In this document: one piece after another, positions 2,141 to 50,646 of the stretch
How the letters are laid out: the number at the start of each line of letters is the position of its first letter
How positions within the stretch are numbered: the first letter of the stretch is position 1
NCBI GenBank assembly: GCA_963756155.1
Contig: CAVWMQ010000008.1
Coordinates: forward strand, 23,240-87,239
Direction of reading: 5' to 3'
DNA from: an uncultured delta proteobacterium
Lineage (GTDB): Bacteria > Desulfobacterota > Binatia > Binatales > Binataceae
Length of the DNA stretch: 64,000 bases
Notes under the pieces: model-generated
Told to the model about the DNA's origin: nothing
Databases searched by the model: none
What the model saw: the letters and a program-made list of their open reading frames with translations, nothing else
Translations under genes and position numbers: made by a program

Positions 2141-2641
2141 TTCGCTTACCTCTCCGCTGATGGGTCCGGGGTCCCCGGTGATTCCCATGTGTCCGTTTCT
2201 TGAGCCATTCCGGTCGTCGAGGACCGGGTTTCCACTCTCGCCTCTGTTCCGCTTGCTCCCGCTGCGCCCTGATCGTCTTGCTTATTCGGGCGGGTATGCA
2301 ATTTGTAGGAAAAGTCGTCTTGTCGTTAGCTTGCTTTGCTTCTTCTTTCTTACTCTGTGCCTTGGCTAGATACCCTTACCAACGCATGTGTAAATTTAGT
2401 CCACGCATTTTCTACTTGTGCTTAGCATATGTCAAGAGCGCTTTCTCCTCATCTTCTCGTTTTATCAGTCAATATCGCCTAAATTCCTCAGCAGGCGGGC
2501 GACGGGGGGTTGTCACACTGCAAGGTTAGCGCTATTGGAAAAATGTAGGGGCGACTAAACGAGTTAAGACGAGCTATTGCGACAGCCGAGAGCTGAAGAG
2601 AGGGAGCGACCGCACATAAGGTCGCAAGCAGAGAAAATCAA

Positions 2642-3376
2642 TCAGCAAGCAGTTGCAATAGCCTCAGAAAGGGTGAATCGACTTTCGTAAAGCGCGCGTC
2701 CGACGATTACGCCGACTACACCGCGATCAAAGCATACAGACAATTTGTATACATCGCTGAGCGTCGCCACTCCCCCCGACGCGATCATTGGCAACCTGGT
2801 CGCCATAGCGATCGCCGCCGTCGCGGCAGCGTCGACGCCGGATTCGGTGCCGTCGCGCGCGATGTCGGTGACGATCGCGGCGGCGACGCCAGCGTCGCGG
2901 AATCGGCGCGCGGCCTCCTCGACGCTAAGCTCGCTGGTCTCCACCCATCCCTTGACGGCGAGCCTTCCCGCGCGCGCATCGATCGAGCCGAAGACGCGCC
3001 CCGGGTATTCCGCGCAGGCCTCGGCGAGCAGTTCCGGCTTCAGGAACGCCGCCGATCCGATCGACACCCGGTCCGCCCCTGCCGCGATTATTCGCCGCAC
3101 CGATTCGAGGCTACGAAGACCGCCGCTCACGTCGAGCGCGCATCTCACCGCGGCCCGAATCGCGAGCACTGAATCGAGGTTGCGCGGCTCGCCCGCGATC
3201 GCGCCATCGAGGTCCACGATGTGAATCAACTGCGCGCCCTCGGTCTCGAAATGCCGCGCCGTCGCGGCCGGATCGTCGCCGTACACGGTCGCGCGGGCCA
3301 TCTCGCCGCGAAGGAGCCGGACGACCTGGCCGTTCTTCAGGTCAATCGAGGGAATTACGGTGAAGCTTTCGAACAA
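2642..3376 (-). CDS. hisA: 1-(5-phosphoribosyl)-5-[(5-phosphoribosylamino)methylideneamino]imidazole-4-carboxamide isomerase
   Basis: VIPSIDLKNGQVVRL...SGGLRS...ASGGV (beta/alpha)8 His biosynthesis signature; his operon context. Confidence 0.9.
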   Translation of the reverse strand: MFESFTVIPSIDLKNGQVVRLLRGEMARATVYGDDPAATARHFETEGAQLIHIVDLDGAIAGEPRNLDSVLAIRAAVRCALDVSGGLRSLESVRRIIAAGADRVSIGSAAFLKPELLAEACAEYPGRVFGSIDARAGRLAVKGWVETSELSVEEAARRFRDAGVAAAIVTDIARDGTESGVDAAATAAIAMATRLPMIASGGVATLSDVYKLSVCFDRGVVGVIVGRALYESRFTLSEAIATAC

Positions 3377-3400
3377 GCGCGACCATCTGGACGAGCGCGG

Positions 3401-4123
3401 CTAGGTGAGCGTCCCCTTGGTGGATAGGATGCCGGACACGCGCGGCTCCAGGGCCGTCGCCTGGTCCATCGCGCGCGCGAGCGCCTTGAACGCCGCCTCG
3501 ATTATGTGATGCGGGTTGCGGCCGCCGAGCAGCTTGAGATGCAGGTTCATCCCGACCTCGTCGCTCATCGCCTTCATGAAGTCGTGCACCAGCTCGGTCT
3601 GGAAGCTGCCGACGCGCTCCTGGCGAATCGGGAGATCGTATCCCAGATATGAGCGCCCGCTGATGTCGACCACGACGTTGCAGAGCGCTTCGTCCAGCGG
3701 CACCGTCGCCTCGCCGAAGCGCCGGATTCCCGAGCGGTCCCCGAGCGCCTGCCGGAACGCGCGGCCGAGCACGATGCCCACGTCCTCGACGGTATGATGC
3801 TCGTCGATATGGAGGTCGCCCTTCGCGTCGATCTTGAGATCGAAGAAGCCGTGGCGCGCGAAACTCTCGAGCATGTGATCGAGGAACGGGACGCCGGTGC
3901 GCGCCTCGCCGCGGCCGCTGCCGTCCAGGCGCAGCGATACCGTCACGGCGGTCTCGCGAGTCTTGCGATCAACGTCAGCGGCGCGACGCGGAGTGTTCGG
4001 CGGGTTTATCGCGACGACGCTGGCCCGCGAGCTCGCCTCGTCCTTCGCCGGCAATGCCCTCGCCTTCGCCGACGATGCGATGCGCTTGCGTGATGACGAT
4101 TTTGCTTTGCGCCTGCTCTGCAT
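3401..4123 (-). CDS. hisB: imidazoleglycerol-phosphate dehydratase
   Basis: KTRETAVTVSLRLDG...DHMLESFARHGFFDL...DEHHTVEDVGIVLG...HHIIEAAFKALARA motifs. The ORF has a roughly 55-aa K/R/S-rich N-terminal extension with no internal alternative start. Confidence 0.85.
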   Translation of the reverse strand: MQSRRKAKSSSRKRIASSAKARALPAKDEASSRASVVAINPPNTPRRAADVDRKTRETAVTVSLRLDGSGRGEARTGVPFLDHMLESFARHGFFDLKIDAKGDLHIDEHHTVEDVGIVLGRAFRQALGDRSGIRRFGEATVPLDEALCNVVVDISGRSYLGYDLPIRQERVGSFQTELVHDFMKAMSDEVGMNLHLKLLGGRNPHHIIEAAFKALARAMDQATALEPRVSGILSTKGTLT

Positions 4124-4125
4124 CT

Positions 4126-5484
4126 TTAGTCCCGCTCCCGCTGCGCGCTCCTGACCTTCTGTTTGTGGCCGGAGCCATCAGCAGCTTTCCCACGAATCCT
4201 CAGCTCCACCGCACGCGCGTGACCCTCTAGATCCTCCATCCGCGCCAGGTGCGCGACCGCCGGCCCCAGTTCCGCGACCGCGCTCATCGACGCCTCGATT
4301 ATACTGGTTCGTTTGAGGAAATCGTATGCACCCAGCGGCGAGGCGAAGCGGGCCGCGCCCCCGGTCGGAAGCACGTGATTAGGCCCCGCCAGGTAGTCGC
4401 CCAACGGCGCGGGCGTCAACGACCCCAGGAACACCGCACCCGCCGCACGGACCCGCGGGAGCCATCGCGACGGATTCTTGATCGCGAGCTCGAGATGCTC
4501 GGGCGCGATTTCATTGGCGAGGTCGAACGCCTCTTTGAGATCGTCAACGATCACGACCGCCCCGCGCTTGGCGAGTGCGCCCGCCACCGCCTTGGCGCGT
4601 GGCAGCGTCTTGAGCGCGCGCTCGACGCTGTCCACAACCGCCGCGCCCAGCCGCGCCGAGGTGGTCATCAGGATCGCCGCCTCGTCGCCGGAACCGTGCT
4701 CGGCCTGCGCGATCAGGTCGGCTGCCACCCAATCGGCGCGCGCGCTGTCGTCGGCTATCACCAACACTTCGCTCGGCCCGGCCATCTTGTCGATATCGAC
4801 CACGCCGTAAACCTGGCGCTTGGCGGCCTGCACCCACGCGTTACCGGGCCCGACGATCTTGTCGACCGGCCGAATCTGCTCTGTTCCATAGGCGAGTGCC
4901 GCGACTGCCTGCGCGCCGCCGACGCGATAGTACTCGTCGACTCCCGCCAGCGCCGCCGCTGCGAGCACTGACAGGCGCTCGCCGCTGCGGGCCGGCGGCG
5001 AGACCATCACGACTTCCTCGACGCCGGCGACTTTGGCGGGTATTGCGTTCATCAGCACCGTCGATGGATACGCGCCCGCGCCGCCGGGAACGTAAATTCC
5101 GACCCGCTTCAGCGGCTGGACGATTTGTCCCAGCCGCATGCCGGCGCGGTCAGAGAAAATGAAGGATTGGTCCATCGTGCGCCGATGGAACGACGCAATT
5201 CGGCGTGCGGCCAGGTCGAGCGCCTGGCGATCCGCCTCTGGCAGCCGCTCGCGCGCGGCGTGAAGCTCGGCCGGGTTAACCCGCAGCTTCGATGGCGCGA
5301 GCGTGACGTGATCGAACTGACTGGTGAACTTAATCAGCGCGCGATCGCCGCTGCGGCGCACTTCGGCGATTATATCTGCGACCTTGGCCTCGATTGCGCT
5401 GTCGCTGCCGCCGCGCCGCTCGCCTATCGCGGTCAGGAAACGGCTGAGCTCGGGGCTCCCGGACTTCAGAATGCGGAGCTTCAT
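4126..5484 (-). CDS. hisD: histidinol dehydrogenase
   Basis: 452 aa; ...GIYVPGGAGAYPSTVLMNAIPAKVAGV...AQAEHGSGDEAAIL...GDYLAGPNHVLPTGGAARF typical HisD. Confidence 0.9.
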   Translation of the reverse strand: MKLRILKSGSPELSRFLTAIGERRGGSDSAIEAKVADIIAEVRRSGDRALIKFTSQFDHVTLAPSKLRVNPAELHAARERLPEADRQALDLAARRIASFHRRTMDQSFIFSDRAGMRLGQIVQPLKRVGIYVPGGAGAYPSTVLMNAIPAKVAGVEEVVMVSPPARSGERLSVLAAAALAGVDEYYRVGGAQAVAALAYGTEQIRPVDKIVGPGNAWVQAAKRQVYGVVDIDKMAGPSEVLVIADDSARADWVAADLIAQAEHGSGDEAAILMTTSARLGAAVVDSVERALKTLPRAKAVAGALAKRGAVVIVDDLKEAFDLANEIAPEHLELAIKNPSRWLPRVRAAGAVFLGSLTPAPLGDYLAGPNHVLPTGGAARFASPLGAYDFLKRTSIIEASMSAVAELGPAVAHLARMEDLEGHARAVELRIRGKAADGSGHKQKVRSAQRERD

Positions 5485-6765: not shown

Positions 6766-7756
6766 CTAACGCCGGGCGCGTACGACGCGCGGGATAGCAT
6801 CGAGATCATTTATCATACTCGTGCGGCGCAATCCCGCATCGGCCAAGCCCCCAGTCAGAATCGCGGCAACGGCGGCGGCCTGCCCTGCCCCGACTTCGAC
6901 GATAACTTCGTCGTCGCTGCCGCCCTCCAAATGCACCCCCGCGCCGCTCGCGATGGCGCGGAAGAAGTCGAGTCCGTCGCGTCCGCCGGCAAGCGCAATC
7001 TCGGGCTCGTATAGCCGGATATCGGGATCGAGGCGCTCGCGGCCTGCGTCGTCGATATAGGGCGGATTGGAGATGATGATATCGAAGCGTCCGAGCGGCG
7101 CGCCACCGTCGGTAACGGCGAAGAGGTCGGCGCGGCGGAACTCGATTCGCGCCGCCAAGTCATGGCGAGCCGCATTGCGGCCGGCCACCGCGAGTGCTGC
7201 GGCCGAGATATCGGTCGCGACGATGCGCGCGCGCGGCGCATGCACCGCGAGCGCGACCGTGATCGCGCCCGAGCCGGTGCCGATTTCGAGAACCCGCACC
7301 TCGGGCTTGTGCACGGACACCGCCGCGACCGCGTCGAGCGCCACGGTCACGAGGGTCTCCGTATGCGGCCTGGGAATGAGGACCGCGGGATTGACTTCAA
7401 GGTCGAGCGAGTAAAATTCCTTGTGCCCGACGATGTAAGCGACCGGCTCGCGCGCGACGCGGCGCGCGAGCATCTGCTCGAAGCGCTCGCGCTGCTCGGG
7501 CGACAGTGGCGATGCGGGCTCGCGCGGCGAGCCCGCATGCGCCGCGCCCGACCTCGCGCTGCTCGCCGGCTGGCGCGCCCGCGCGCGCAGAGCTGGCCGG
7601 CAGGATGCCGGCCAGCACCTGCGCGCGCGTCGCGCCGGTGGCGGCGCCAAGCAGCACCTCGGCGTCCAGCCGCGGAGACTCGACGCCTGCGGCCTCAAGT
7701 CTCCGCGCCGCCGCATCGAGTAGTGCGGCCACGGAGGATCTCTGCTCAGCGGTCAT
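6766..7756 (-). CDS. prmC: peptide chain release factor N(5)-glutamine methyltransferase (PrmC/HemK), apparently frameshifted
   Basis: N-terminal HemK region (MTAEQRSSVAALLDAAARRLEAAGVESPRLDAEVLL...) in track ORF 7397..7756. Methyltransferase core (PLSPEQRERFEQMLARRVAREPVAYIVGHKEFYSL...LEIGTGSGAI...NPPY) in ORF 6766..7716, a different frame. The switch lies around 7520-7590. Confidence 0.7.
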
Positions 7757-8065
7757 CTGATTAGCTACCTGCGGCTATTCCCGATTCGCGTTCTTGCAGG
7801 AATGTATGTTTCCAATCGATATCCGGCCGTCGAGCTGTCAACTTGCCTTCCTTTGATAGCTGCCACGACGTGAGCCCGAAGCGATCCGCGTTCTTGGAGA
7901 GTACGTAACCGGGGTGCAGGCTGCCAGCGCTGACGATGCTCCGACTTTTGAGAGAAGCGCCTCAAGGTTCGGCTTCGGACCCCAGGAATTCTGATTTTTG
8001 GGCTTGCAATTGGCACACCATTTCTACTACCGTGGGTAATACTACTGGTGTGGAGGAAACTCGCC

Positions 8066-8290
8066 ATGAGCGTTGCAAAATTATCGGTCTCACTTCCCGA
8101 CTCGCTGGCCGGGTTTGTCGAGGGTTATCGCAAAAAGCGCGGCCTGAAGAGCCGCTCCCAGGTCTTCGAGGAAGCGCTCAAGCTGCTCAGAAGCCAAGAG
8201 TTGGAGGCAGCTTACCGGGAGGCGGACTCCAAACACGACAAGGCCTGGGACAATGCGCTGTCGGACGGGCTGAGCGATGAGACGTGGTGA
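8066..8290 (+). CDS. type II antitoxin, ribbon-helix-helix/MazE-like
   Basis: MSVAKLSVSLPDSLAGFVEGY...RSQVFEEALKLL; GGAGGA RBS 8 nt upstream of ATG 8066; overlaps the downstream toxin by 14 nt. Confidence 0.6.
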   Translation: MSVAKLSVSLPDSLAGFVEGYRKKRGLKSRSQVFEEALKLLRSQELEAAYREADSKHDKAWDNALSDGLSDETW

Positions 8291-8612
8291 AATATACTAC
8301 GCCGACCTGGGCCCTACGATCGGCTCCGAGATCAACAAACGCCGGCCGGTGCTGATTGTCAGCAACGAAGCGAATAATCGTGCCGCGAGCACGGTGACCA
8401 TCCTGCCAATCACCTCCAATGTGAGCCGGATATATCCCTTCGAGATTCCACTTTCGCCAAGAGACAGCGGCTTACCCAGACCTTCGAAGGCACAGGCGCA
8501 GCAGATTCGCACCATCTCCAAGGAACGCATCCGAGGCGATGCGGTGGCGCGACTCGGGGCGATCCCGATGCGCAAGGCGGCCGATGCGATGCGTCTTCAT
8601 CTAGACCTGTAG
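8277..8612 (+). CDS. mazF: type II toxin, MazF/PemK family endoribonuclease
   Basis: MRRGEIYYADLGPTIGSEINKRRPVLIVSNEANN...VTILPITS: canonical PemK/MazF motif. Confidence 0.8.
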   Translation: MRRGEIYYADLGPTIGSEINKRRPVLIVSNEANNRAASTVTILPITSNVSRIYPFEIPLSPRDSGLPRPSKAQAQQIRTISKERIRGDAVARLGAIPMRKAADAMRLHLDL

Positions 8613-36478: not shown

Positions 36479-37273
36479 ATGTCAGTTTATCGAAAAATTT
36501 CGCCTCGCGACGGACGCCAGACGCGTCGTCGGCGCGCCGCCTTCTACGACCTCGACGGCACCCTGGTCGATCTGAACTTGATCCACATGACGCTTTTCAT
36601 ACTGGCCAATATCGGCGAATGGAGCGCGCGCATTTCCTACCTGCTCAGTTTTGTTGTGCGGGTGCCGCGGCTTTACCTCGCCGAGCGTGACGATCGCCGC
36701 AAGCTCAACACCGTCTTGTTCGAATCGTTCAAGGGAGTGTCGCACGACCGGCTGGTCGAGCTTGGCGAGGAATATTGCGATCGCATCCTGATCAAGCATC
36801 TGTTCCCGCGCGCGATTGAGATGCTCGAGGCGAATCGCGCGGCCGGGCTCGAGCCGGTGCTGGTTACAGGCTCCCCGGATTTCATCGCCGCTCCCCTCGC
36901 CCGTCATCTCGGCGTCGCCGATTTCGCGGGCAACCGGCTGGTAATCAGCCGCGGCTGCGCGACTGGCCGGCTCGCGGAACCGGTGATGGCCGGCGAGGAC
37001 AAGGCGCACTGGTGCGAGGATTACGCTGCGCAGCGAGGAATCGATCTCACCGAATGCTGGGGCTACGCGGATTCGAACTACGACATGCCGTTCCTGGCCG
37101 CGCTGGGTCATCCGGTGGCCGTCAATCCGGATCGCAAGCTCAGAGCCGCCGCGATGAGCCGTCACTGGCCGATCATTCACTTCGAAATGGACGGGGCCGA
37201 CGCGACGCCCTCCGACGACGACGAACTCAAACTGAGCGAACTGGAACGGAGCGAATCGGATGGCGCGTCCTGA
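36479..37273 (+). CDS. HAD-IB family hydrolase (phosphoserine-phosphatase-like)
   Basis: AAFYDLDGTL (DxDxT), ...VTGSPDFIAAP..., GYADSNYDMPFL motifs. Confidence 0.75.
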   Translation: MSVYRKISPRDGRQTRRRRAAFYDLDGTLVDLNLIHMTLFILANIGEWSARISYLLSFVVRVPRLYLAERDDRRKLNTVLFESFKGVSHDRLVELGEEYCDRILIKHLFPRAIEMLEANRAAGLEPVLVTGSPDFIAAPLARHLGVADFAGNRLVISRGCATGRLAEPVMAGEDKAHWCEDYAAQRGIDLTECWGYADSNYDMPFLAALGHPVAVNPDRKLRAAAMSRHWPIIHFEMDGADATPSDDDELKLSELERSESDGAS

Positions 37274-38900
37274 GTCGAAGATTAAGGAGCTGAAGCCCGC
37301 CGATCTGCGCCACGAGGTCGGCGCGCGCCGCGATCTGGTCGTTACGCTTAATCGTCGCTCCGAGCGACGCCTGATTGCCTACGGTGACGATTTCATGTTC
37401 GAGAAGTTGCCGGTCGGCACTCGCGTGATCTATCCACCGCCGCCGCTCGAGGCGCTGCCCGACCCCGACCAGGCGATTCGCTATGCGCTCCTGCGGCCCG
37501 AGAACGCCGACCCGCTGTTCGCGCAGTTGAATCCCAATATGCGCGTGACCGTCGCGATCGACGACATCAGCCTGCCACTGCCCCCGATGCGCCGGCCCGA
37601 TATCCGCGAGCGCGTCCTGAACCAGGTGCTGCAGACGCTAGCCGACTATGGCGTCGACGACGTGCATCTCATCATCGCGACGTCGTTGCATCGCCGCATG
37701 ACCGAGGCTGAAATTCGCCGCGCCGTCGGCGAGCGCGCCTTCAAGCAGTTCTGGCCCGACCGCCTCTATAACTTCGACGCCGAAAATCGCGCCGAGCTCG
37801 CGATGCTGGGCAAGACCGACCATGGCGAGGAAGTGTGGCTGAGTAAGCGTGCCGTCGAATCCGATCTCGTCATCTATGTGAACATTAACCTCGTTCCGAT
37901 GGACGGCGGCCACAAGTCGGTTGCCGTCGGCCTCGCGCCGTATCAGAGCCTGCGCCACCATCACAACGCCGCGACGCTTCGCGACAGCCACTCGTACATG
38001 GATCCGACCCGCTCGGCGCTCCATCGCTCTGCCGATCGAATGGGCAAAATCGTGAACGACAACGTAAACGTGTTCACCGTCGAGACCGCCGTCAACACGC
38101 GCATGTATGGCGGGATGCTCGACTTTCTCCACAAGAACGAAGACCGCTTCACCGACTGGGATCGCACGCGGCTTGGCGGCTTCAAGTGGACTCTCAAAAA
38201 TCTCTCCAACGACTTGCGGCGCAAGGCGTTGCAGAATTATTCCTCACCGTACGGGATGACCGGCGTGTGGGCCGGTGAGACCGAGGCCGTCCATCAGAAG
38301 GCGCTCGCCAAGGTCTTCCAGCAATACGCGGTGCCGGTGAAGGGCCAGTCCGACATCCTGATCGTCGGCGTTCCGTTCATCTGCCCTTACAACGTCAACT
38401 CGATCATGAACCCGGTCCTCGTGCAGTGCACCGGGCTCGGCTACTTGTTCAATATGTATCGCGGCAAGCCGCTGGTGCGGCCCGGCGGCACCGTGATCAT
38501 ATGCCACCCGCTGCGCGACGAGTTCCATCCCGAGCATCACCCGAGCTACATCGAGTTCTTCCATCGATGCCTCGCTGAAACTACCGACGCGATCGAACTC
38601 GAGCGCGCCTTCGAGCACGAGTTCGCCCGCAACCCGACCTACATTCACATGTATCGCTACGGCCACGCGTACCACGGCGTGCATCCGTTCTACATGTGGT
38701 ATTGGGGCGAGCCCGCGCGCCAGCACGTCGGACGCGTGATCGCCGCCGGATGCGAAGAGCCGGAAGTCGCGGCGCGGCTCGGATGGGATTCCGCTGACAC
38801 CCTTGACCAGGCGATCGCGATGGCGACTTCCGACCTCGGCCGCTCGGCCACCATCACGTATCTCCATTTGCCGCCAATAGTGATTGCCGATGTCGAGTAG
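37260..38900 (+). CDS. LarA-like / DUF2088 (lactate racemase N-terminal domain) family protein
   Basis: 546 aa; VTVAIDDISLPLPP...DVHLIIATSLHRRMTEAE...LVPMDGGHKS pattern resembles nickel-pincer-dependent racemase/epimerase family. Assigned from memory, needs HMM check. Confidence 0.45.
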   Translation: MARPESKIKELKPADLRHEVGARRDLVVTLNRRSERRLIAYGDDFMFEKLPVGTRVIYPPPPLEALPDPDQAIRYALLRPENADPLFAQLNPNMRVTVAIDDISLPLPPMRRPDIRERVLNQVLQTLADYGVDDVHLIIATSLHRRMTEAEIRRAVGERAFKQFWPDRLYNFDAENRAELAMLGKTDHGEEVWLSKRAVESDLVIYVNINLVPMDGGHKSVAVGLAPYQSLRHHHNAATLRDSHSYMDPTRSALHRSADRMGKIVNDNVNVFTVETAVNTRMYGGMLDFLHKNEDRFTDWDRTRLGGFKWTLKNLSNDLRRKALQNYSSPYGMTGVWAGETEAVHQKALAKVFQQYAVPVKGQSDILIVGVPFICPYNVNSIMNPVLVQCTGLGYLFNMYRGKPLVRPGGTVIICHPLRDEFHPEHHPSYIEFFHRCLAETTDAIELERAFEHEFARNPTYIHMYRYGHAYHGVHPFYMWYWGEPARQHVGRVIAAGCEEPEVAARLGWDSADTLDQAIAMATSDLGRSATITYLHLPPIVIADVE

Positions 38901-41900
38901 CAACAACGGTAACGGCAGCGGCCGCAACGGAAACGGCCACGGCAACGGGCGCGTGAGCGCCTCCGCGATGCCACCGCTGGAGCAGGTGCTGCGCAAGCGG
39001 CGGATCCTGCTGACTGGCGCGACCGGATTCCTCGGCAAAGTCTTTCTCGAGCTGCTCCTCCAATGGCATCCCGAGATCGAACGCGTCTATTTGCTGATTC
39101 GCGGCGACCGCCGCTCCAGCCAGGGCCGCTTCCGCCGCGAAATTCTCGACTCACCGGTGGTGGCACCGCTGCGCGAGCATCTTGGCGCCCACTTCGATTC
39201 CTACATCGAAAGCAAAATCGCGGTCGTCTCCGGGGACATTACCAATGAAGGCCTGCTGAGCGACGACGCCGAGCCTTTCAAGCGCGGCAGTCTCGACGCG
39301 GTCGTGCACAGCGCCGGCCTGGTGAACTTCGAGGCGTCGCTGGAGAAAGCGCTGGCAGTCAACACCATCGGCGTCGCCAACGTGATCGAGTTCTGCCGCA
39401 AGGTCGGCGCCGCGATGATCCACGTCTCGACCTGTTACGTGGCAGGCAACGCCGACGGTCATCGCTTCGAGGACGATCTGCCGGAGAACTGGTGCCCTGC
39501 GGGCCGGCGCAAATTCAGCCTCGAACGCGAGGTCCGCGACGCGAGCGCGGCGATCGCTCGAGTCGAAGCCGAGTCGCGCGATCAGTTGCGCCAGTCCGAG
39601 CTGCACGCCTCCGCCGAAGAGGACGGCCAGTTCCTCGACGGCCACGAGACCGCATTCGAGCATCGGCGCAAGCGATGGGTCGAAGATCGCCTAAAGGACA
39701 TCGGGCGCAAGCGGGCGCTCAGCTGGGGATGGCCCAACACCTACAGCTACACCAAGAGCCTCGGCGAACAGCTCGTGCTGGCAGCGCGCGATGCGATCGA
39801 CGTTACTGTCGTGCGCCCCGCGGTTATTGAGAGCGCGCTGCGCGACCCCTTTCCCGGATGGAACCAGGGCGTCAACACCAGCGCGCCGCTGACCTACCTG
39901 GCTGGCCGCGGCTACCGCTTCTATCCGGCGAAAGCCGAGCTGGTTCTTGACGTGATACCGGTCGATCTCGCCGCGCACGCGATGATTCCGATCCTCGCCG
40001 CGACTCTCCTCAAGCGCCAGAAGCCCATCTACCAGCTCTGCACCTCGGATCGGAATCCGCTCCCGATGTACCGGCTGGTCGAGCTCACCGGCCTTGCCAA
40101 TCGCAACGAGCATCGCAAGCACGGCGGCCCGATGGGCCGCCTCGCGCGCCATCTGGAGGCCACCGTCGTCTCGCAGACGACCTACGACCTCGCGAGCCTC
40201 ACGCTTCCCAGGCTTCTCAAGCAGGGCGCGGAACTCGCGCGCAGTGTGCTTGGTGAGGATTCCGAGCGCGGCCGCAGGCTCGTGGCCGGTGCCGGCGCGC
40301 TCGAAGAGACCATGGACCTCGCGCGCTCGCTGGTTCAGGTCTACCGCCCCTACATCCAGGAGCTGGTCTACACTTTTCACTCCAACAACATCCGCGCGCT
40401 CTACGCCTCGATTCGCGAGGCCGACGCCGCCAACCATCCCTTCCATCCCGAAAAGATCGACTGGCGCGACTACTGGATAAACGTGCATATGCCCGGGCTG
40501 CGCCGGCACATCTATCCGCAGCTCGACCTTCACACCCGCGGCCGTCCGCGCCTGCTCCCGCGCCATCGCACGCTGGTTGATTTGCTCGAACGCGCCGCGG
40601 AGCGTTACGGCGCCGACACCGCGTTGATGGCGCACAAGCCGTCCGGCGAGCGCACCTCGGTAACTTACCGTGAGCTGCGCGACCACGCGCGACGCGGCGG
40701 TATCGTGCTCGCGCAGCGCGGGATCAAGCCCGGCGATCGTGTCCTGCTGATCAGCGAGAACTCGCCGGATTGGGTGCTCGCGTTCTTTTCGATTCTCGAA
40801 GCCGGCGCTATCGCGGTGCCGCTCGACCATCTGATTTCCGCCGAAGAGCTCGCGCCCATCTGCAAAATCGCCGAGCCGCGCGCCGCCCTCCGCTCCGCGT
40901 CCGTCGCGCGCCGCCTGGGCAGCGCGGTCCGCGACACGGTCGCGAAAATCGTCGAGCTTGATCTCGCCGAGCTGAGCCGCCCGTTCCTGCTCCGCGCCGA
41001 CGCCGCAGCACCGCCCACGCCCGACCGCAAGACCGTCGCCTCGATTGTGTTCACCTCGGGCACCACCGGCGCACCCAAGGGCGTGATGCTCACCCACGGG
41101 AATTTCTGCGCCGAAGTCTCGATGCTGGGCCGCGTGTTTGCGCTGGCCGGCGACGACCTGGTGCTCTCGCTGCTTCCGCTCCATCACACTTTCGAGTTCA
41201 CCTGCGGGATGCTGCTGCCGCTTGCCAGTGGCGCGACCGTCGCCTACCCGCTCGAGGTCGACGCGAAAAATCTCTCGCGCACGCTCGCTGATATCCGCCC
41301 CACCGCGCTCATTGGTGTGCCCGCGCTGTGGGAAGCGGTGCATCGTCGCATCGTCGACGAGGTCGAATCGCGCGGACCGTTCTTTCACGCCGGGTTCAAC
41401 AATCTGCGCGACCTCAATCGGCGCCTCGATCGCGACTCGGGTCTCAATCTCGGCTCGATCCTGTTTCGCCAGGCGCATTCGGCTCTCGGCGGCAGGCTCA
41501 AGCTCGCCGTCAGCGGCGGTGCCGCCCTGCCCCACCGCGTTGCCGAGTTTTTCAATGACATTGGAATCCGGCTGCTCGAGGGCTACGGCCTAACTGAGGC
41601 GGCTCCCGTGCTATGCGCGGCGCATCCCGACGAGCCGTTGAAGCTGGGCTCCGTCGGCAAGCCGCTCAATGGCGTCGAAATCAAACTCGCCGCCAACGGC
41701 CACGAGAACGGCGAGAGCATCATCGGCGAGATACTGGCCCGCGGCCCAAACGTGATGGCCGGCTACTATAGGAACCAATCCGCGACCGACGAAGTTATCC
41801 GCGACGGATGGCTGCATACCGGCGACCTCGGCCGCTTCGACGAGGACGGACGGCTCTCCGTTGTCGGCCGCGCCAAGGAAGTCATCGTCGATTCGGGCGG

Positions 41901-43344
41901 CAACAACATCTATATCGACGAGCTCGAAGAAGCCTATGGCCGCTCCCATTACGTGAAGGAGATGGCCGTAGTGGGCCTCACTGTCGGACAGGGTGAGCTG
42001 GTCGCCGCGTTGGCTGTGCCAGCGTATGCGCGCGGTGAGAGCCGCCGCTCGGTCGAGGACAAACTCCGCAGCCACTTCGAGAAGGTCGGCCAGGCGCTGA
42101 GTCCGCACAAGCGAATCAGGATCCTGCGCTTCACCGACGCCGACCTGCCGCGCACGCGTACCCGCAAGATCAGGCGCGCCGAAGTCGTCGCGATTGTCCG
42201 CCGGATGCTCGAGAGCAAGCCCGAGCAAGCCGCCTCGGCCAGCGCCGAGGTCGAGCCGTGGCTCGCCGAGACCCTCGCCGCAGTCTCCAGCGAGCCAGTC
42301 GCCATCACTCCCAGCACCCGCCTGATCGAAGACCTGGGTCTCGACTCGCTGGCGATGGCGGAACTCGGTGAGCATATCGCCGTGCGCGCGGGACGCGACA
42401 TCGGCCCGGAAGAGATGGCCAATCTGCGCACCGTTGACGACCTGCAGCGGCTCGCGCTTGCGGCCAACGGCAACGGCAGCCGGCATCGGATGCCTTCCTA
42501 CGCGCGCTTCGCGGAGCCGTATACACCGAAACTCCCCCGGCCGCTCCGATGGCTCGGCACCACGATCGCCCGCAATGCGCAGCGCGCCGCGTTCGAGTCG
42601 TGGCTCAAGCCAAAGATCCTCGGACGTGGGAACATCCCCGCCAATCGCAACGTGCTGGTGGTCGCCAATCATTCGAGCCACGTCGATTTCGGGTTGGTCG
42701 GCTACGCACTCGCAGCGATGGGCAACGATCTGCGCGTGCTCGCCGCCAAGGATTATTTTTTCAACACCCCGGCGCGCCGTTATATCGCGACTAACTTCAC
42801 CTCATTGATTCCCTTCGACCGCGAGCGTGCGCAGCTCGAGTCGCTCGACGACGCGCTCGCAGAGCTGAGCGCGGGCCGCAGCGTATTGATGTTCCCTGAA
42901 GGCACCCGCTCGGCCGACGGCGAGATGCAGGAATTCAAGAGCGGCGCCGGCTACCTGGCGCTGCGCAGCGGATGCGACGTGCTGCCGATGCATATCAGCG
43001 GGACCTTCAAGGTCCTCGGTAAAGGCAGCCTGGTCCCGCGCCGCGCACCAGTCGAGGTCCGCATCGGACGCGTGATTCCCAGCGCCGAGTTGCGCAACCT
43101 GGCCGAGAGCTCGGAAGGGATGGGCGCGTACCGGAAGCTCGCCGACTTCATGTACGAGGCGGTGATCGCGCTCAAAAGCGGGCGCAGCGTGCGACGCATC
43201 GGTCTGCGCGCCGCCGAAGCAGTGGTGCTGGCCCCGCAACTTCCGGCGCCCCAGACTCAGGAGCAGTCACAGGAACCGCCGAGCGCGAGGCCTCACAAGA
43301 CGCATGCGACGGGCACTCATGCGCGCGGACACGCCAAGGGTTGA
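38884..43344 (+). CDS. four-domain lipid biosynthesis enzyme: fatty acyl reductase, AMP-dependent acyl ligase, acyl carrier protein and 1-acyl-sn-glycerol-3-phosphate acyltransferase (ElbD-like)
   Basis: 1486 aa. N-terminal ILLTGATGFLGKVFLELLL...YLLIRG...VVHSAGLVNF...STCYV (NAD_binding_4/FAR). Mid region FTSGTTGAPKGVMLTHGNF...EGYGLTEA...GWLHTGDLGRFDEDGRL (AMP-binding). LIEDLGLDSLAMAELGEHIA (PP-binding serine). C-terminal VVANHSSHVDFGLV...FPEGTRSADGE (PlsC HX4D/EGTR). Confidence 0.85.
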   Translation: MPMSSSNNGNGSGRNGNGHGNGRVSASAMPPLEQVLRKRRILLTGATGFLGKVFLELLLQWHPEIERVYLLIRGDRRSSQGRFRREILDSPVVAPLREHLGAHFDSYIESKIAVVSGDITNEGLLSDDAEPFKRGSLDAVVHSAGLVNFEASLEKALAVNTIGVANVIEFCRKVGAAMIHVSTCYVAGNADGHRFEDDLPENWCPAGRRKFSLEREVRDASAAIARVEAESRDQLRQSELHASAEEDGQFLDGHETAFEHRRKRWVEDRLKDIGRKRALSWGWPNTYSYTKSLGEQLVLAARDAIDVTVVRPAVIESALRDPFPGWNQGVNTSAPLTYLAGRGYRFYPAKAELVLDVIPVDLAAHAMIPILAATLLKRQKPIYQLCTSDRNPLPMYRLVELTGLANRNEHRKHGGPMGRLARHLEATVVSQTTYDLASLTLPRLLKQGAELARSVLGEDSERGRRLVAGAGALEETMDLARSLVQVYRPYIQELVYTFHSNNIRALYASIREADAANHPFHPEKIDWRDYWINVHMPGLRRHIYPQLDLHTRGRPRLLPRHRTLVDLLERAAERYGADTALMAHKPSGERTSVTYRELRDHARRGGIVLAQRGIKPGDRVLLISENSPDWVLAFFSILEAGAIAVPLDHLISAEELAPICKIAEPRAALRSASVARRLGSAVRDTVAKIVELDLAELSRPFLLRADAAAPPTPDRKTVASIVFTSGTTGAPKGVMLTHGNFCAEVSMLGRVFALAGDDLVLSLLPLHHTFEFTCGMLLPLASGATVAYPLEVDAKNLSRTLADIRPTALIGVPALWEAVHRRIVDEVESRGPFFHAGFNNLRDLNRRLDRDSGLNLGSILFRQAHSALGGRLKLAVSGGAALPHRVAEFFNDIGIRLLEGYGLTEAAPVLCAAHPDEPLKLGSVGKPLNGVEIKLAANGHENGESIIGEILARGPNVMAGYYRNQSATDEVIRDGWLHTGDLGRFDEDGRLSVVGRAKEVIVDSGGNNIYIDELEEAYGRSHYVKEMAVVGLTVGQGELVAALAVPAYARGESRRSVEDKLRSHFEKVGQALSPHKRIRILRFTDADLPRTRTRKIRRAEVVAIVRRMLESKPEQAASASAEVEPWLAETLAAVSSEPVAITPSTRLIEDLGLDSLAMAELGEHIAVRAGRDIGPEEMANLRTVDDLQRLALAANGNGSRHRMPSYARFAEPYTPKLPRPLRWLGTTIARNAQRAAFESWLKPKILGRGNIPANRNVLVVANHSSHVDFGLVGYALAAMGNDLRVLAAKDYFFNTPARRYIATNFTSLIPFDRERAQLESLDDALAELSAGRSVLMFPEGTRSADGEMQEFKSGAGYLALRSGCDVLPMHISGTFKVLGKGSLVPRRAPVEVRIGRVIPSAELRNLAESSEGMGAYRKLADFMYEAVIALKSGRSVRRIGLRAAEAVVLAPQLPAPQTQEQSQEPPSARPHKTHATGTHARGHAKG

Positions 43345-44291
43345 TGATCGCGCGCGCAAGGGGGGATTGCCGTCGCGCGATTCGCGCCGCGGTCGCCTCG
43401 CTCTCGTTCGCGATCATCTTTTTCCGCGCCACGAACGGATTCGCCTGGGACAGTGCGACCCATAGGTTGATCACCCGGCTAGCGGTCCGTGCGCTTCCCA
43501 AGTCTCCGCTGAGTGTCGAATTCATGTTGAACGAAGACCACCTCGAACGGTACTCAGTGGAACCCGATTCGGTCCTGAAGAAGGAATACGGCCACAAAGA
43601 AGAAATTCGTCACTATATCGATCTGGAAAACCTCGGCCCCGATCCTTTTTCCGTGTTGAACCCCAATTTCGCTGCGATGCAGCAGCGGTTCGGCGAGCTG
43701 CTCGACCGGACGGGTACGCTCCCGTGGACGATAGACGTAATGGCCGCCAAGCTCCCGGGAGAGTGGATGCGCAACGACTGCACCGACGTGATTCGCGACG
43801 CCGGCTACTTGGCCCACTACGTCGGCGACGCGAGTCAGCCGCTGCATACTACCGCGAACTGGGACGGTTTCGATCGCGGCGATCGCGGCCTCCATGCGCG
43901 CATCGAGCTTGCGGTCGATCACAATGTGGAATTGCTCGGCGCACTCACTTCGGGCCAGGTGCACGCCGCAGACATTACCGCGGTGTGGCCGACGGAAATC
44001 ACAGAGATTCGGCAGGCGCACCAATACGTCGCCAAATTTATCGATGACGATCGCCAGTTGCGCCATCTGGCTCGGAGCGGCGACACCGACGCCTATGAAA
44101 AGGCGCTCGTCAGGCGCGACTTGCAGCTCTTTTCCGGCCAGATTGCATCGGCAGCTTCCACGCTCGCATCGATATGGCTGTTCGAATGGCGCAAGGCGGG
44201 AAGCCCGACGGGATGTGCAAAACGACTCCCTTCGCGCCACGGCAGACGCGATGGCCACGACGGCCGCTTACTGGATTACCACCCGTTCTGA
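43341..44291 (+). CDS. secreted zinc-dependent hydrolase, S1/P1 nuclease or phospholipase C family
   Basis: Signal peptide; WDSATHRLI, HYIDLEN, HYVGDASQPLH metal-ligand pattern. ATGA overlap with the upstream gene. Confidence 0.55.
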   Translation: MMIARARGDCRRAIRAAVASLSFAIIFFRATNGFAWDSATHRLITRLAVRALPKSPLSVEFMLNEDHLERYSVEPDSVLKKEYGHKEEIRHYIDLENLGPDPFSVLNPNFAAMQQRFGELLDRTGTLPWTIDVMAAKLPGEWMRNDCTDVIRDAGYLAHYVGDASQPLHTTANWDGFDRGDRGLHARIELAVDHNVELLGALTSGQVHAADITAVWPTEITEIRQAHQYVAKFIDDDRQLRHLARSGDTDAYEKALVRRDLQLFSGQIASAASTLASIWLFEWRKAGSPTGCAKRLPSRHGRRDGHDGRLLDYHPF

Positions 44292-44308
44292 TAGTTAAAC
44301 TTGGACCA

Positions 44309-44845
44309 ATGGTAGACTGGTTCAGCAAACGCCCAGACGGACATGCGCGCCCCACCCGCCATTGGGGCCGGCCCGCGGTCGCCGAGATTACGCCCACGCT
44401 ACTGATCGGCGAATATCCGCGCGACGAGGATGTCGACTGGCTCAAGGAAACTCACGCCGTCACCGCGGTGCTCAATCTCCAGGACGAAGAGGATCTGCGC
44501 GTCAACGGCATCGACATCGACGCGATGCGCGAGCGCTACGCTGAAAACGGTATCAAGCTGGTGCGCACTCCCATCCCCGACGGCAGCGCCGATGCGATGA
44601 AGGACCATCTCAAGGTCGCGCTCGACGATCTGCACGAATTGATCGGGGCGCAGGAGCGCGTATTTTTACACTGTAACGGCGGCGTCAATCGCGCGCCCAC
44701 CCTGGCGATCGCATATCTGCGCGCGTTCGGCGGGCTGTCGCTCAACGAGGCGCAGGCGCACGTCAAAACGCGGCGCGCATGCGGTCCGTTCATGACCGTG
44801 CTCGAGGAATACTTCGGGCCGCGTGACCTGAAGCCGGACGCATAA
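44309..44845 (+). CDS. dual-specificity phosphatase family protein (PTPMT1-like CX5R)
   Basis: HCNGGVNRAPT active-site P-loop; about 178 aa. The sequence as I read it shows an in-frame stop near 44288 that the ORF track (44174..44845, read through) contradicts, so coordinates near 44275-44300 may be off by 1 nt. Confidence 0.7.
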   Translation: MVDWFSKRPDGHARPTRHWGRPAVAEITPTLLIGEYPRDEDVDWLKETHAVTAVLNLQDEEDLRVNGIDIDAMRERYAENGIKLVRTPIPDGSADAMKDHLKVALDDLHELIGAQERVFLHCNGGVNRAPTLAIAYLRAFGGLSLNEAQAHVKTRRACGPFMTVLEEYFGPRDLKPDA

Positions 44846-44885
44846 CTTGGCAATCAGCGGCACCGCGAGAACTTTTCCCGAGACC

Positions 44886-45602
44886 ATGCCGAGGCGGCGT
44901 TTCCTGCTGGCCTGCGCGTGGGGCGTTCATCTGTACACCGCGCTCGGCGCGGTCGCGGGGCTGCTTGCGATTTACTTCGCGAGCCGATGGGAATTCCGCG
45001 CGTCATTCATCGCGATGGGCGCGGCGACTTTTATCGACTCGAGCGACGGGCCGCTCGCGCGCCTGGTCAACGTGCGCGCGCGAGTTCCATCCTTCGACGG
45101 CGCGCTGCTCGACAACATCGTCGACTACCTGACCTACACCGTAGCGCCCGTGTTCCTGATGATCGAAGCGGGAATCACGCCGCCAGGATGGATCGGGCTC
45201 GGCCTCGCGTGTTTCGTGATGCTGGCCAGCGCCTATGGCTTCTGTCAGACCGCAGCCAAGACCGACGACCATTATTTTCTCGGTTTCCCGAACTACTGGA
45301 ACCTCATCGCGTTCTATCTCTATTGCCTTGGCCGCAGCCCTACGTTCAACGCCGCGATCCTTGCAACCTTTGCCGTGCTGGTCTTCGTGCCGATCAAATA
45401 CATTTATCCCAATCGCACAGTCGCGCTCCGCCCGCTGACGCTCACCCTCGGGATCATCTGGGCGGTTATCACGATCGCGATGCTCGCGATGCTGCCCAGC
45501 GTGAATCCGGTGCTGCTGTTCGCCTCGCTGAGCTTCATCGCCTACTACCTGATCGCCTCTTTCGCACTCCACGCGCGCTCCGCGCTCGCCACACTGCGAT
45601 GA
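44886..45602 (+). CDS. CDP-alcohol phosphatidyltransferase family protein (Pcs/PgsA-like)
   Basis: DSSDGPLARLVNVRARVPSFDGALLDNIVD matches the D-G-x2-A-R...G-x3-D-x3-D motif; 6 TM helices. Start ATG 44886 or TTG 44847. Confidence 0.75.
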   Translation: MPRRRFLLACAWGVHLYTALGAVAGLLAIYFASRWEFRASFIAMGAATFIDSSDGPLARLVNVRARVPSFDGALLDNIVDYLTYTVAPVFLMIEAGITPPGWIGLGLACFVMLASAYGFCQTAAKTDDHYFLGFPNYWNLIAFYLYCLGRSPTFNAAILATFAVLVFVPIKYIYPNRTVALRPLTLTLGIIWAVITIAMLAMLPSVNPVLLFASLSFIAYYLIASFALHARSALATLR

Positions 45603-45615
45603 ATCGCAAATCGCA

Positions 45616-47415
45616 ATGAGCGCTTCCGCGTCCGGCCCGTTGACATCCCGCGCGCCCGTCGAGCCCTGGCTCGAAACTATCGACACCGACTCCCCGCTCC
45701 TTCTGATCGCGCCGCACGGGGGACGCGCGGAGCCTGCGACGCGCTCGATGCTGAATCCCAAGGTCAACGATCTGCACACTGCGGACATCACGCGCGAGTT
45801 GGCGCGACGCCTGGACGCGGCGGCACTGATCAACGCGGGAATGGATCGCAATCGGCTGGACTGTAACCGGATTCAGCAACTGCTCGCGCGCGCCCCGTGG
45901 CTGCTCGAGATGATCGCCGATCGGCTCGAACAAATCGTCGACCGGCACGGCCACGCGGTGGTCCTGCTGATTCACGGCTGGAACATCATCGAGCCGCGCG
46001 TCGATTTTGGACTGGGACTGCGCAACATCGGTGGCGAACTGCATCCGCCCGGCACCGCGTGCGTCTCCGCGTGCGACGAATTCATCCACGGACCGCTCGC
46101 GCACTTTGCCGAGCGGCTTCGCGAGCACGGAATCCGGCCTAGCTTCGGTATGCGTTACCCGGCAGGCGGACTACAGAACCTGGTGCAGGCATTTACCGGG
46201 CGCCACCGCGACAATCCGGCGGAGCCGCTCAGACGCATCGCCGCGATCGCGGAGCGCGCGCAGGTCGACGCGGCACAGCTCGAATTGTCGGTCGCGCTCC
46301 GGATGCCGGGGACGCTGCGCGCGCGATGCCTCGATGCGATCGAAACGTCGTTCGCATCCAACGGACACGCGCCGTCGCATCATGACCTCGACACGCCATC
46401 GCGTCCGGGAATCGTCGTAAACCGAACCCCGCGGCCGCGTTTGGCGCCCCCGAAGTCCCCCGCGGCTGCATCGGCGCCCGCTCCGCCAGCACGCGTCGGA
46501 GTCGAGTTCTTCGACCCTGCCACGCGCATCGGCGCGATGGCCAGCTTCGATATTGGAACCGGCTTCGGCGCGCGAATCATGATGCTCCTGGGCGGGCGGC
46601 GGGTCGCGCTCTTCACTGGGGAGGGCGCCGTCACGTGCAAGGCAGGCCGGATTGCGCTCGGACCTCTCGCACTTTCCGAGGATGGCCGCGAACTCCTGCT
46701 AACGTTCAAAGGACCCGCGGTAGTCGTTCCGGATTCATCGGCGTACTTGAGCATCGAGCGCGCGCTCGCCTCGGGCCGGCTCGATGGCGCGGCCGAGGTC
46801 TCGGCGCGGCTCAAATTTCCCGGCCGCAGAATCAATCTCGACGAAATCACCTCCGGCGCTGGCGCGCGCGACGCGAGCGGGCAGGCTTTCTTCGGAAGAC
46901 TCACCGGGACCGTCTCGGTCGACGGCATGACCAGCCCGATCGATGCGGTCGTGCGCGCGGGAGTTTCATTCACTGGGCTCGGGCCGCAAAAGTTCGTCGC
47001 GCGCCGGATGATATGGGCGTCCTTACCGGACGGCGTGTCACCGTCGGCGCTCGAGCTGCGGGTCGTTAAGACTGACGACGGCACGAATCAAAGTGCACGG
47101 GCGCTCGGACCGGTCGGATGGTCGCCATGCGAAATCAATCAGCTCGTCCTCGAGACGGCGTCGGTCGAAGAGCCGCCGCATCAACTCTCGGCGCTACTGA
47201 CGGTTGACGGCGCCCAGCCCAAGGCGCTCATCGGCCAGGTCGAGAGCTTCATCCCGCTCTCACGGCCGGGCCCCGAGCAGACGCGCATCTACACGTCGCT
47301 GGGCTTCGCGCGCTTCAGCTTCGGCGGGCGAGCGGGAGCAGGCATGTTCGAATACTCGCGGCGCGCGGAGACGGTGCTGACCGCGGCCGAATCCGACGAC
47401 GAAGACTCCGACTGA
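45616..47415 (+). CDS. N-formylglutamate amidohydrolase-like hydrolase domain protein with about 300-aa uncharacterised C-terminal domain
   Basis: LLLIAPHGGR...DLHTADITREL...RNRLDCNR...VVLLIHGW resembles the FGase family; last gene of the lipid operon. Confidence 0.4.
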   Translation: MSASASGPLTSRAPVEPWLETIDTDSPLLLIAPHGGRAEPATRSMLNPKVNDLHTADITRELARRLDAAALINAGMDRNRLDCNRIQQLLARAPWLLEMIADRLEQIVDRHGHAVVLLIHGWNIIEPRVDFGLGLRNIGGELHPPGTACVSACDEFIHGPLAHFAERLREHGIRPSFGMRYPAGGLQNLVQAFTGRHRDNPAEPLRRIAAIAERAQVDAAQLELSVALRMPGTLRARCLDAIETSFASNGHAPSHHDLDTPSRPGIVVNRTPRPRLAPPKSPAAASAPAPPARVGVEFFDPATRIGAMASFDIGTGFGARIMMLLGGRRVALFTGEGAVTCKAGRIALGPLALSEDGRELLLTFKGPAVVVPDSSAYLSIERALASGRLDGAAEVSARLKFPGRRINLDEITSGAGARDASGQAFFGRLTGTVSVDGMTSPIDAVVRAGVSFTGLGPQKFVARRMIWASLPDGVSPSALELRVVKTDDGTNQSARALGPVGWSPCEINQLVLETASVEEPPHQLSALLTVDGAQPKALIGQVESFIPLSRPGPEQTRIYTSLGFARFSFGGRAGAGMFEYSRRAETVLTAAESDDEDSD

Positions 47416-48372: not shown

Positions 48373-48633
48373 TTTTTCGGCGCGGCAATCAAATCCGCGT
48401 ATCTATCATTCTCCGGCGCGGCATTCCGTATAGGATGCCCCGTTTGAAGTGGCTCGTAAAGAATGGGGACGAGCGTTGCGCGAACAACTCATCCGTAACA
48501 CCTTGTCGCGTATCGCGAGTATCGCTCGTGCAGGAACGCTCGGCGCTTATGGCGCGGCAGCACTCGTCGCGTGGTAGCTGCCACGCGATCACACGGCGAT
48601 ACGGCGCTGGCCCGGCTCGCGAGAACGATCGCG

Positions 48634-49086
48634 CTACATGTTCTCTTCGTCGGCGTCGGTCGAGCCGAGTTTGCGATAGGTATTGCGCTCGTCTTCGAAT
48701 TTGCGCTGCGACTTCGCTTCGTGCTCCTGCTCCTGCTGGCAGTCGCGGCACAGCCGGGTGAACGGCATCACGTTGAGCCGTTCCTCGGCGATCTCGAGCC
48801 CGCACGATTCGCAGACGCCGTAGGTCGAATCCTCGAGCCGCTCCAGCGCGTCGTCGATCTGCTTGATCTTCATGCGCTCGCGATCGGAGAGGATGAAATT
48901 GATTTCGCGGTCGCGCTCTTCGGAGGCGAGGTCATAGGTGTCCATGCCCTCGTCCTTGTTGCTCTCGCGTTCGGCCTTGAGCTCCGAGTCGATTTCGCTG
49001 AGCAGTTTGGTCTTCATGTCCGACAGGCGCTCACGGACTTTAGCCAGGAACTTTTTCCGGTTCGAGGCTGCGGGTTTACGCGCCAT
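48634..49086 (-). CDS. dksA: DksA/TraR family C4-type zinc-finger RNA polymerase-binding protein
   Basis: Coiled-coil plus CESCGLEI...CRDCQ zinc finger. Confidence 0.8.
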   Translation of the reverse strand: MARKPAASNRKKFLAKVRERLSDMKTKLLSEIDSELKAERESNKDEGMDTYDLASEERDREINFILSDRERMKIKQIDDALERLEDSTYGVCESCGLEIAEERLNVMPFTRLCRDCQQEQEHEAKSQRKFEDERNTYRKLGSTDADEENM

Positions 49087-49109: not shown

Positions 49110-50646
49110 TTAAAGAACCGCGCCCACGACCCTGCCCTGGAGATCGTAGCTGAGAGCTTTTTCGATTCGCGCGCGCACGAATTCGCCCGGCTCGGCGTCG
49201 CCAGCAAGGAACACCGCGCCGTCGATATCGGGCGCCTGTCCGGAGGTTCGCCCGCGCATTCGCGTGGCGCGTCCGGGCATCGGGCCTTCCACCAGAACCT
49301 CGAGTTCGCGGCCGACCAGGTCGCGGTTCTTCTTCAACGAAATTTCCGCCTGCATGCGCATTAGCTCGGCGCGGCGCGCGCGCTTGACGCGCTCCGGCAC
49401 CTGACCCGCCATCTCGAAGGCGGCGGTATTCTCCTCGCGCGAGTAAGTAAACACGCCGAGGCGGTCGAATTGTTCCGCGCGCACGAAATCGACGAGCCGA
49501 TCGAACGCCGCATCGGTCTCGCCGGGAAATCCGACGATGAATGAGGTGCGCAGCGCGACGCCCGGGATGCGCGTGCGCACGCGCTCGAGCAGCCGGCGGA
49601 GTGCCGCGCCGGAGCGCTCGCGGCGCATCGCGCGCAGGATCGCGTCGTCGGCGTGCTGCAGCGGGATGTCGATATACTTCACGACCTGGGGAAGCTCGGC
49701 GACCGTGTCGAGCAGCTCGTCGGTAACGAAGTTCGGATAGCAGTAGAGCAGCCGGATCCAGCGAATGCCGGCGACCGTCGCAAGCTCGCGCAGCAGCTTC
49801 GCGAGCGAAACCGCCGGCCTCAGATCGCGTCCGTACGCGGTAAGATCCTGCGCTATCAAATTGAGCTCGCGGACACCGTCGCTGGCCAGTTGGCGGGCTT
49901 GGGCGACCAGGTTGCCAACGGGGCGACTTTCGTGGCGGCCGCGGATTTTCGGGATGATGCAGAAGGCGCAGCTGTGATTGCAGCCCTCCGAAATCTTCAA
50001 GTAAGACGTGAAGTATTCGCCGAGCCGGACCCGCGGCGCTGCCGCATCGGGCAGTAAATGAGCCGCGCCTGCCGATGGAATTGGGCGATTCTCGAGGTTC
50101 GCCGCGCCTGCACGATGGGATTGGGCGATTTTCGAAGTTTGCCGCGGCTGCATATGGGATCGAGCGATTCTCGAGGTTTGCGGCGCCGGCGAACAGAATC
50201 CGCCTGTCCTCGATGTGCGACGCGTTTGCGTATGCGATTGGGTGGTCTTTGAGGTGGGCGGCGCCGGCGTAGGGGATTGCGCGGTCTTCGGGGGACTCGG
50301 TGCGGCGGAGGAGCTCCGGCAGGTCGAGGAAGTTGCCGGTGCCTACGAAAACGTCAACCTCTGGCAACCTGTCGCGCAGCTCGGCGCCGTAGCGTTGCGA
50401 CAGGCATCCGGCGACCACCAGGCGTTTGCCGTGCCCGCGCTTCTTGACCGCCGCAGCTTCCAGGATCGCGTCAATGGATTCCTTCTTGGCGGCTTCGATG
50501 AACGCGCAGGTGTTCACGACGAGCACCTGCGCCGCCTCCGGGTCGAGCGTGATCTCGAACCCTGCGCTGGTGAGCGCGCCAAGCATCAACTCGCTGTCCG
50601 CCAGGTTCTTGGGACAGCCGAGAGTGAGGAGATGAACGGTTTCCAT
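49110..50646 (-). CDS. rimO: ribosomal protein S12 methylthiotransferase RimO, interrupted by an internal tandem repeat expansion and an apparent +1 frameshift
   Basis: MTTase N-domain (METVHLLTLGCPKNLADSE...VVNTCAFI...VVAGCLSQRYG) in frame of track ORF 49105..50694. Radical-SAM CNHSCAFCIIP plus TRAM domain in frame of ORF 49110..50153. Frames switch inside a 39-bp repeat block at 50040-50300. Confidence 0.7.
50041..50300. repeat. about six units of a 39-40-bp tandem repeat inside the rimO linker (13-aa units)
   Basis: Units such as gccgcgcctgcacgatgggattgggcgattttcgaagttt, encoding DRAIPYAGAAHLK/DHPIAYANASHIE/DRRILFAGAANLE/NRSIPYAAAANFE/NRPIPS. One unit is 40 nt (ccatcgt instead of ccatcg/ccatat). 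Confidence 0.7.

Follow-up and report, generated by a model that had tools for sequence, protein, structure and literature searches.

The rimO gene of a Candidatus Binataceae species, an uncultured soil bacterium, raises the question of how a run of tandem repeats came to lie between two domains of the enzyme, and whether the single additional base that leaves the two halves of the gene in different frames is real. RimO carries out the methylthiolation of a conserved Asp in ribosomal protein S12. The gene was analysed within a 64,000-nucleotide stretch of DNA (the window), for which the original prediction had offered either a repeat-associated sequencing error or a phase-variable or pseudogenised essential enzyme. 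As assembled, rimO runs on the minus strand from an ATG at 50646 to a stop codon at 49112-49110, with the following features.

49110..50646, minus strand: rimO (30S ribosomal protein S12 methylthiotransferase) as assembled, its frame interrupted by one extra base.
50341..50637, minus strand: MTTase N-terminal domain (UPF0004, PF00919; Pfam), residues 4-102, in the upstream frame.
50052..50286, minus strand: interdomain linker array of six tandem 39-nt units, each encoding 13 aa (repaired residues 121-198).
50112, A on the plus strand and T on the gene strand: the extra base, which shifts the rimO frame.
49482..49997, minus strand: radical-SAM core (PF04055; Pfam), repaired residues 217-388, in the downstream frame.
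49125..49316, minus strand: TRAM domain (PF18693, PF01938; Pfam), repaired residues 444-507.

When the extra base was taken out, the two halves of the gene were joined in a 511-aa product. This repaired protein scored 485.6 bits against the RimO equivalog profile TIGR01125 (cut-off 356.95). By contrast, it fell below the cut-offs of the tRNA methylthiotransferases MiaB (TIGR01574; 288.6 bits, cut-off 355.3) and MtaB (TIGR01579; 249 bits, cut-off 357.05), with which it shares superfamily and architecture (PDB 7mjv), and the gene is therefore assigned to RimO and not to a tRNA enzyme. The Pfam domain order UPF0004, Radical_SAM and TRAM was recovered in the repaired protein, as in other members of the family (TIGR01125; E. 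coli RimO/YliG; T. maritima 4jc0 and 2qgq), and so were the three N-domain cysteines (C11, C47 and C81) and the radical-SAM CxxxCxxC motif (C222-x3-C226-x2-C229) common to that family, all of which were invariant in a 28-sequence alignment. Like its Binataceae orthologues, the gene adjoins a dksA-like gene. The match to T. maritima RimO (4jc0, E = 1e-99) consisted of two blocks covering both sides of an interdomain linker, which occupies residues 107-204 of the repaired protein. This linker is 98 residues long, whereas T. maritima has 26 and other Binataceae have 33; its extra length comes from a 13-residue segment that is present six times. Both the naming of the gene and the placing of its repeats between the MTTase N-domain and the radical-SAM core (Pfam 4-102 and 217-388, array 121-198) had been given correctly in the original prediction, while its count of "about six" 39-bp units could be made exact: there are six, arranged head-to-tail and beginning after residue 120.

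50286-50248, minus strand: unit 1, DRAIPYAGAAHLK.
50247-50209, minus strand: unit 2, DHPIAYANASHIE.
50208-50170, minus strand: unit 3, DRRILFAGAANLE.
50169-50131, minus strand: unit 4, NRSIPYAAAANFE.
50130-50091, minus strand: unit 5, the sole 40-nt unit; NRPIPS/AGAANLE after removal of one base.
50090-50052, minus strand: unit 6, NRPIPSAGAAHLL.

It is the 40-nt unit 5 that puts the N-terminal and C-terminal halves of rimO, as assembled, into different frames, as had been predicted. In a codon-usage Viterbi analysis the frame switch in rimO was placed at ~50127, and was the clearest such switch away from a stop codon. On the gene strand the extra base lies in the context CCATCG[T]GCAGG, flanked by G on both sides and outside any homopolymer, where unit 6 reads CCATCGGCAGG; without the extra T, unit 5 reads NRPIPSAGAANLE.

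The window was compared with other assemblies of the same species, which were reached via exact look-ups of DksA and HisA only. The dksA-like protein next to rimO (48634-49086) was found with identical sequence on eight other contigs, while exact look-ups of both as-assembled rimO ORFs, and of LolA, MurA, MazF and MazE, gave no match. One conspecific contig (ENA ERZ25039605 contig_51414, 148 kb; here L083), which has 99.1% DNA identity to window positions 53084-44635 (8.4 kb), carries a called, uninterrupted rimO of 511 aa with six units. Another (JGI 3300075518, 20 kb; here L084), with 98.7% DNA identity to the window, begins 50 nt upstream of the array and runs through it in frame to the rimO stop. 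In both, the six units have a uniform 39-nt period, and the single reading frame that is interrupted in the window is intact. The base at 50112 is the only indel within rimO that separates the window from either contig. At this position L083 has the Ser codon TCG and L084 the Tyr codon TAT, and the TCG+T of the window equals the L083 allele plus the last base of the L084 allele. The 12-mer with the extra base is CCATCGTGCAGG, and its normal-length forms are CCATCGGCAGG and CC(A/G)TATGCAGG, corresponding to the TCG and TAT haplotypes.

The extra base is therefore best explained, and we think probably, as a consensus error at a polymorphic site. On the strength of these three sequences, the TCGT of the window would be the product of a consensus builder that merged reads of the TCG and TAT alleles, and the actual rimO of the organism would code for an unbroken enzyme of 511 aa, like that of the other two conspecific assemblies. 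A repeat-associated sequencing error was thus the best-fitting of the readings first offered, given the uniform 39-nt period and intact 511-aa frame of the two conspecific assemblies, an outcome that comes down to the first refutation named in the original prediction, that of a simple error. Against the error stands the consideration that, if the contig was built from accurate short or HiFi reads, the novel 12-mer would have to exist in real molecules, and this dependence on the sequencing platform is the main reason for calling the error reading probable and not certain.

Errors of a similar kind could be followed in related assemblies. In related Binataceae species, rimO was broken by 1-4 frameshifts in 5 of 29 loci from Nanopore-only 'MFD...bin' MAGs, and no rimO frameshifts were found in the other loci, outside this set. 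For the Microflora Danica MAGs, assembly was by Flye followed by a single round of Medaka (PMC12313526). In the conspecific contigs L083 and L091, single-base insertions in GC-rich, non-homopolymer contexts split ftsK (three times), murA and a 599-aa gene, leaving in ERZ25039605 split products of 374 + 272 aa for ftsK, 135 + 484 aa for the 599-aa gene and 328 + 109 aa for murA.

L045, L053, L059, L060 and L070, ~3001-4340 in each: broken rimO in MFD MAGs.
L083:207, 236, 453 and 6215: insertions, equivalent to window 52878, 52850, 52634 and 46872.
L091:3396: insertion, equivalent to window 5980.

The extra base in rimO is, like these indel errors of Nanopore-only assembly, one inserted base amid GC-rich sequence outside a homopolymer. 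The window, however, is intact at all five insertion sites, and its overall indel load is far below that of L083 and L091. With only two frame breaks in 64 kb, and ~30 genes with full-length Pfam coverage, errors are not frequent in it.

The main alternative is that the extra base is real, and that the strain or a dominant subpopulation carries a very recent loss-of-function allele of rimO, in which the N-terminal domain would be fused to ~335 out-of-frame residues and no functional enzyme would be made. We consider this a serious possibility, but an unlikely one. In its favour, the window sequence as given does read out of frame within an otherwise fairly clean assembly, in which prmC, a second translation-related modification gene, is likewise out of frame. 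Such an allele would also be viable, because rimO is dispensable in E. coli, where rimO mutants grow like wild type with no growth defect (PMC10002905); this is also why the earlier description of RimO as an essential enzyme does not hold. In addition, the array mutates faster than the rest of rimO, and real mutations are likelier there too because its synonymous difference rate is raised (0.05 versus 0.009). Against a null allele, rimO is intact in both conspecific assemblies, the inserted base gives just what overlapping the two known alleles at this codon would give, and frameshift artefacts are frequent in the long-read MAGs of this clade. Nor does the gene bear any sign of secondary decay. 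All catalytic motifs are present, dN/dS against the next species (L019; SMAG_U263, k141 assembly, 85% DNA identity) is 0.10 for the part of rimO downstream of the frameshift, and outside the array only one non-synonymous (over ~966 non-synonymous sites) and three synonymous differences separate the window from L083. By these comparisons rimO is not decaying, and the lesion, if real, would be very recent.

We turn to the array itself. Tandem Repeats Finder detected only its three most similar units (period 39, 3.2 copies, score 175), but over all six units identity at a lag of 39 nt was 0.68, compared with 0.22-0.32 at neighbouring lags, and this periodicity exceeded that of codon shuffles with z = 11.6. 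Among the other 234-nt stretches of the window, none reaches the lag-39 identity of the array. Pairwise identity between units is 51-79% at the DNA level, too low for a recent duplication, and in many pairs the differences fall mostly at third codon positions. The array is therefore old, and has long been translated in frame.

The relatives of this RimO in other species indicate what was amplified. The claim that such repeats are unusual for RimO was borne out, since all 27 relatives inspected have one copy of the segment each, and differ in length at their termini. The best 120 protein matches listed, RimO proteins of Candidatus Binatus and Binataceae, are all 445-467 aa long, and matches at 80 genome loci are all at most 1392 nt long, compared with 1536 nt in the window. 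A typical Binataceae RimO of ~446 aa with one unit therefore stands against one of 511 aa with six units in the window species. These single-copy proteins (e.g. P0007 and P0004) are 76-83% identical overall to the window protein, and the motifs flanking the array, LLRRTE-P-E and GAAHLLP, are identical between them. The ancestral single segment reads E-x-R-P-I-P-Y-A-G-A-A-H-L-L-P, with GAAHLL invariant in relatives; its upstream context survives in unit 1, and the invariant GAAHLLP beside the catalytic core in unit 6. In an alignment with the 27 relatives the window protein has a 65-residue insertion, and because 511 - 446 = 65 = 5 x 13, it is a conserved linker piece that has been amplified and not an arbitrary spacer that has been inserted. 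Slippage or unequal recombination would be the most likely origin of the array.

Further searches for the array in other proteins gave little. When the repeat region alone served as a protein query, the only matches were short RimO fragments with one copy, and units 1-5 searched against 1.84 billion representative proteins returned only unrelated repeat proteins. A scan of JGI metagenomes with repeat-specific peptides yielded, among the matches listed, two that were confirmed, both single-copy. These negatives carry little weight for close relatives, because the existing RimO proteins of L083 and L084 were not returned. A literature search for 'RimO' with 'tandem repeat' found nothing relevant.

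Between strains, the array differs far more than the remainder of the gene, with 0.034-0.046 non-synonymous differences per site versus 0.001-0.008 elsewhere in rimO (~30 times the rest of the gene). L083 and L084 share six amino-acid differences from the window, which must therefore be real alleles and not errors. In an AlphaFold2 model, residues 118-238 had pLDDT < 50 and no secondary structure, while the three domains folded as expected; the array is thus predicted to be disordered, from an input alignment that was shallow and had no homologous rows in the inserted region. The simplest reading of the array is as a flexible, weakly constrained tether. A longer flexible tether would presumably be tolerated because the two domains could still dock on each other.

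Strain differences close to rimO were also seen in window 48519-48565, which lies between the dksA-like gene and a ParA/Mrp-like gene. Here, 1-2 nt intergenic indel polymorphisms occur in one state in the window and L083, and in another in the JGI and k141 contigs.

A stronger version of the tether would have it functional and fast-evolving under diversifying selection, for example by tuning the access of S12 or a partner to the two iron-sulfur clusters, with both the rimO frameshift and the prmC break being genuine. If so, the strain would have lost two enzymes that modify the translation apparatus. We hold this combination of claims to be improbable.

It is more doubtful still that the array is itself an assembly artefact and that the true gene has a single unit like its relatives. 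The original prediction had held that absence of the repeats from relatives would suggest misassembly. Other species do lack the repeats, and some contigs built from short reads, both from this species and from its nearest relative, stop no more than ~110 nt from the array, yet the conclusion does not follow, since assemblies of the same species carry it. The window, the ENA contig and the JGI contig, from different samples and archives, agree on six units and on their unit-specific substitutions, and because these independent conspecific assemblies carry the same six units, the array is real and not misassembled. Moreover, units that are 51-79% identical are too diverged for assembler confusion, and third-position differences are expected of a long-translated sequence. 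Copy number is constant at six across the three assemblies, and the array would appear to be confined to this species.

Three contigs that end near the array were recorded: one from the nearest other species (L019:1 = window 50018) and two JGI contigs of the same species (L084:1 = 50336; L085:1 = 49945). Strain variation within the array thus seems to break up assembly graphs.

Least credible of all is a functional frameshift, whether a repeat-driven phase-variable ON/OFF switch or a programmed +1 ribosomal frameshift that yields full-length RimO. The break does fall within a tandem repeat, but changes in copy number cannot switch the frame when the 39-nt unit is a multiple of three, six copies are present in all three assemblies (the only three available), and the extra base, with a G on either side, lies outside any homopolymer or short repeat tract, so that the phase-variable enzyme of the original prediction has to be given up. 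In common with bacterial contingency loci, where repeat slippage causes phase variation, rimO has an intragenic tandem repeat whose sequence varies between strains; unlike them, its unit keeps the frame, its copies are diverged and constant in number, its product is a cytoplasmic housekeeping enzyme and no surface protein, and the break does not come from the register of the repeats. For a programmed shift, the insertion is followed, out of frame, by AGG, an Arg codon used less often in this DNA (5.0 per 1000 versus 58.9 for CGC), which superficially recalls hungry-codon +1 sites. AGG is, however, only moderately rare, and reading 50100-50130 by eye gave no slippery sequence for tRNA re-pairing (UCG to CGU, UGC to GCA), no in-frame stop and no upstream Shine-Dalgarno-like stimulator. 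The shift is also not conserved, as the genes of all other relatives, like the conspecific ones, keep the frame. Re-initiation at an internal ATG (50153), which would give a split enzyme, was likewise set aside, as no Shine-Dalgarno-like sequence was seen upstream of that ATG and the intact conspecific genes make such an enzyme unnecessary.

What these sequences support, then, is a real, apparently species-specific six-fold linker repeat in an otherwise ordinary RimO, a minor new variant of a known enzyme. Its biological weight is small: a housekeeping radical-SAM enzyme would tolerate a 65-residue repetitive insertion between two cluster-binding domains, and such a linker insertion can turn into a local hot spot of strain variation. 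In practice, when a metagenome-derived contig shows a frameshift within a repeat, calling it a pseudogene or a phase switch should wait for comparison with independent assemblies of the same species, a comparison that was supplied here in one step by looking up an identical neighbouring protein (the dksA-like protein).

The second frame break of the window lies in prmC.

6766-7756, especially 7498-7564, minus strand: prmC, frame broken.

Positions 2-39 of the PrmC_N profile match in ORF 7397-7756 and positions 41-71 in ORF 6766-7716, which lies in a different frame. Between the two parts lies a 67-nt segment flanked by a 12-nt direct repeat, GAGCAGCGCGAG, and deletion of these 67 nt restores the frame. 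The segment holds a perfect 12-bp palindrome, ATGCGGGCTCGC / GCGAGCCCGCAT, with a DNA fold of -26.5 kcal/mol (z = -2.6); sought as a member of a repeated element family, the palindrome had a single occurrence in the window. The conspecific contig L091, whose prmC is out of frame as well, carries an additional G at window 7546, and this disagreement between the two assemblies indicates a site that is difficult to sequence.

Elsewhere, window 2222-2290 differs at two places, by -1 and by -2 nt (net -3 nt) and at a distance of 27 nt, from both L091 (a long contig) and L092 (a k141 contig). The site lies in or close to a small gene for a Flp/Fap pilin (ORF 1970-2281), and the two indels may compensate each other. 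A frame-switch scan also flagged window 8048-8612 on the plus strand as a possible frameshift, but this proved to be a MazE/MazF-like toxin-antitoxin pair instead, in which a 111-aa ORF with a full-length PemK_toxin match overlaps an 80-aa upstream ORF by 14 nt. Finally, window 37236-47415 on the plus strand consists of tightly packed same-strand genes, including a 1487-aa ORF (38884-43344) and two ORFs with no Pfam match (44832-45602 and 45553-47415). Every frame change in this region falls at a stop codon and thus marks the boundary of a gene, not a frameshift.
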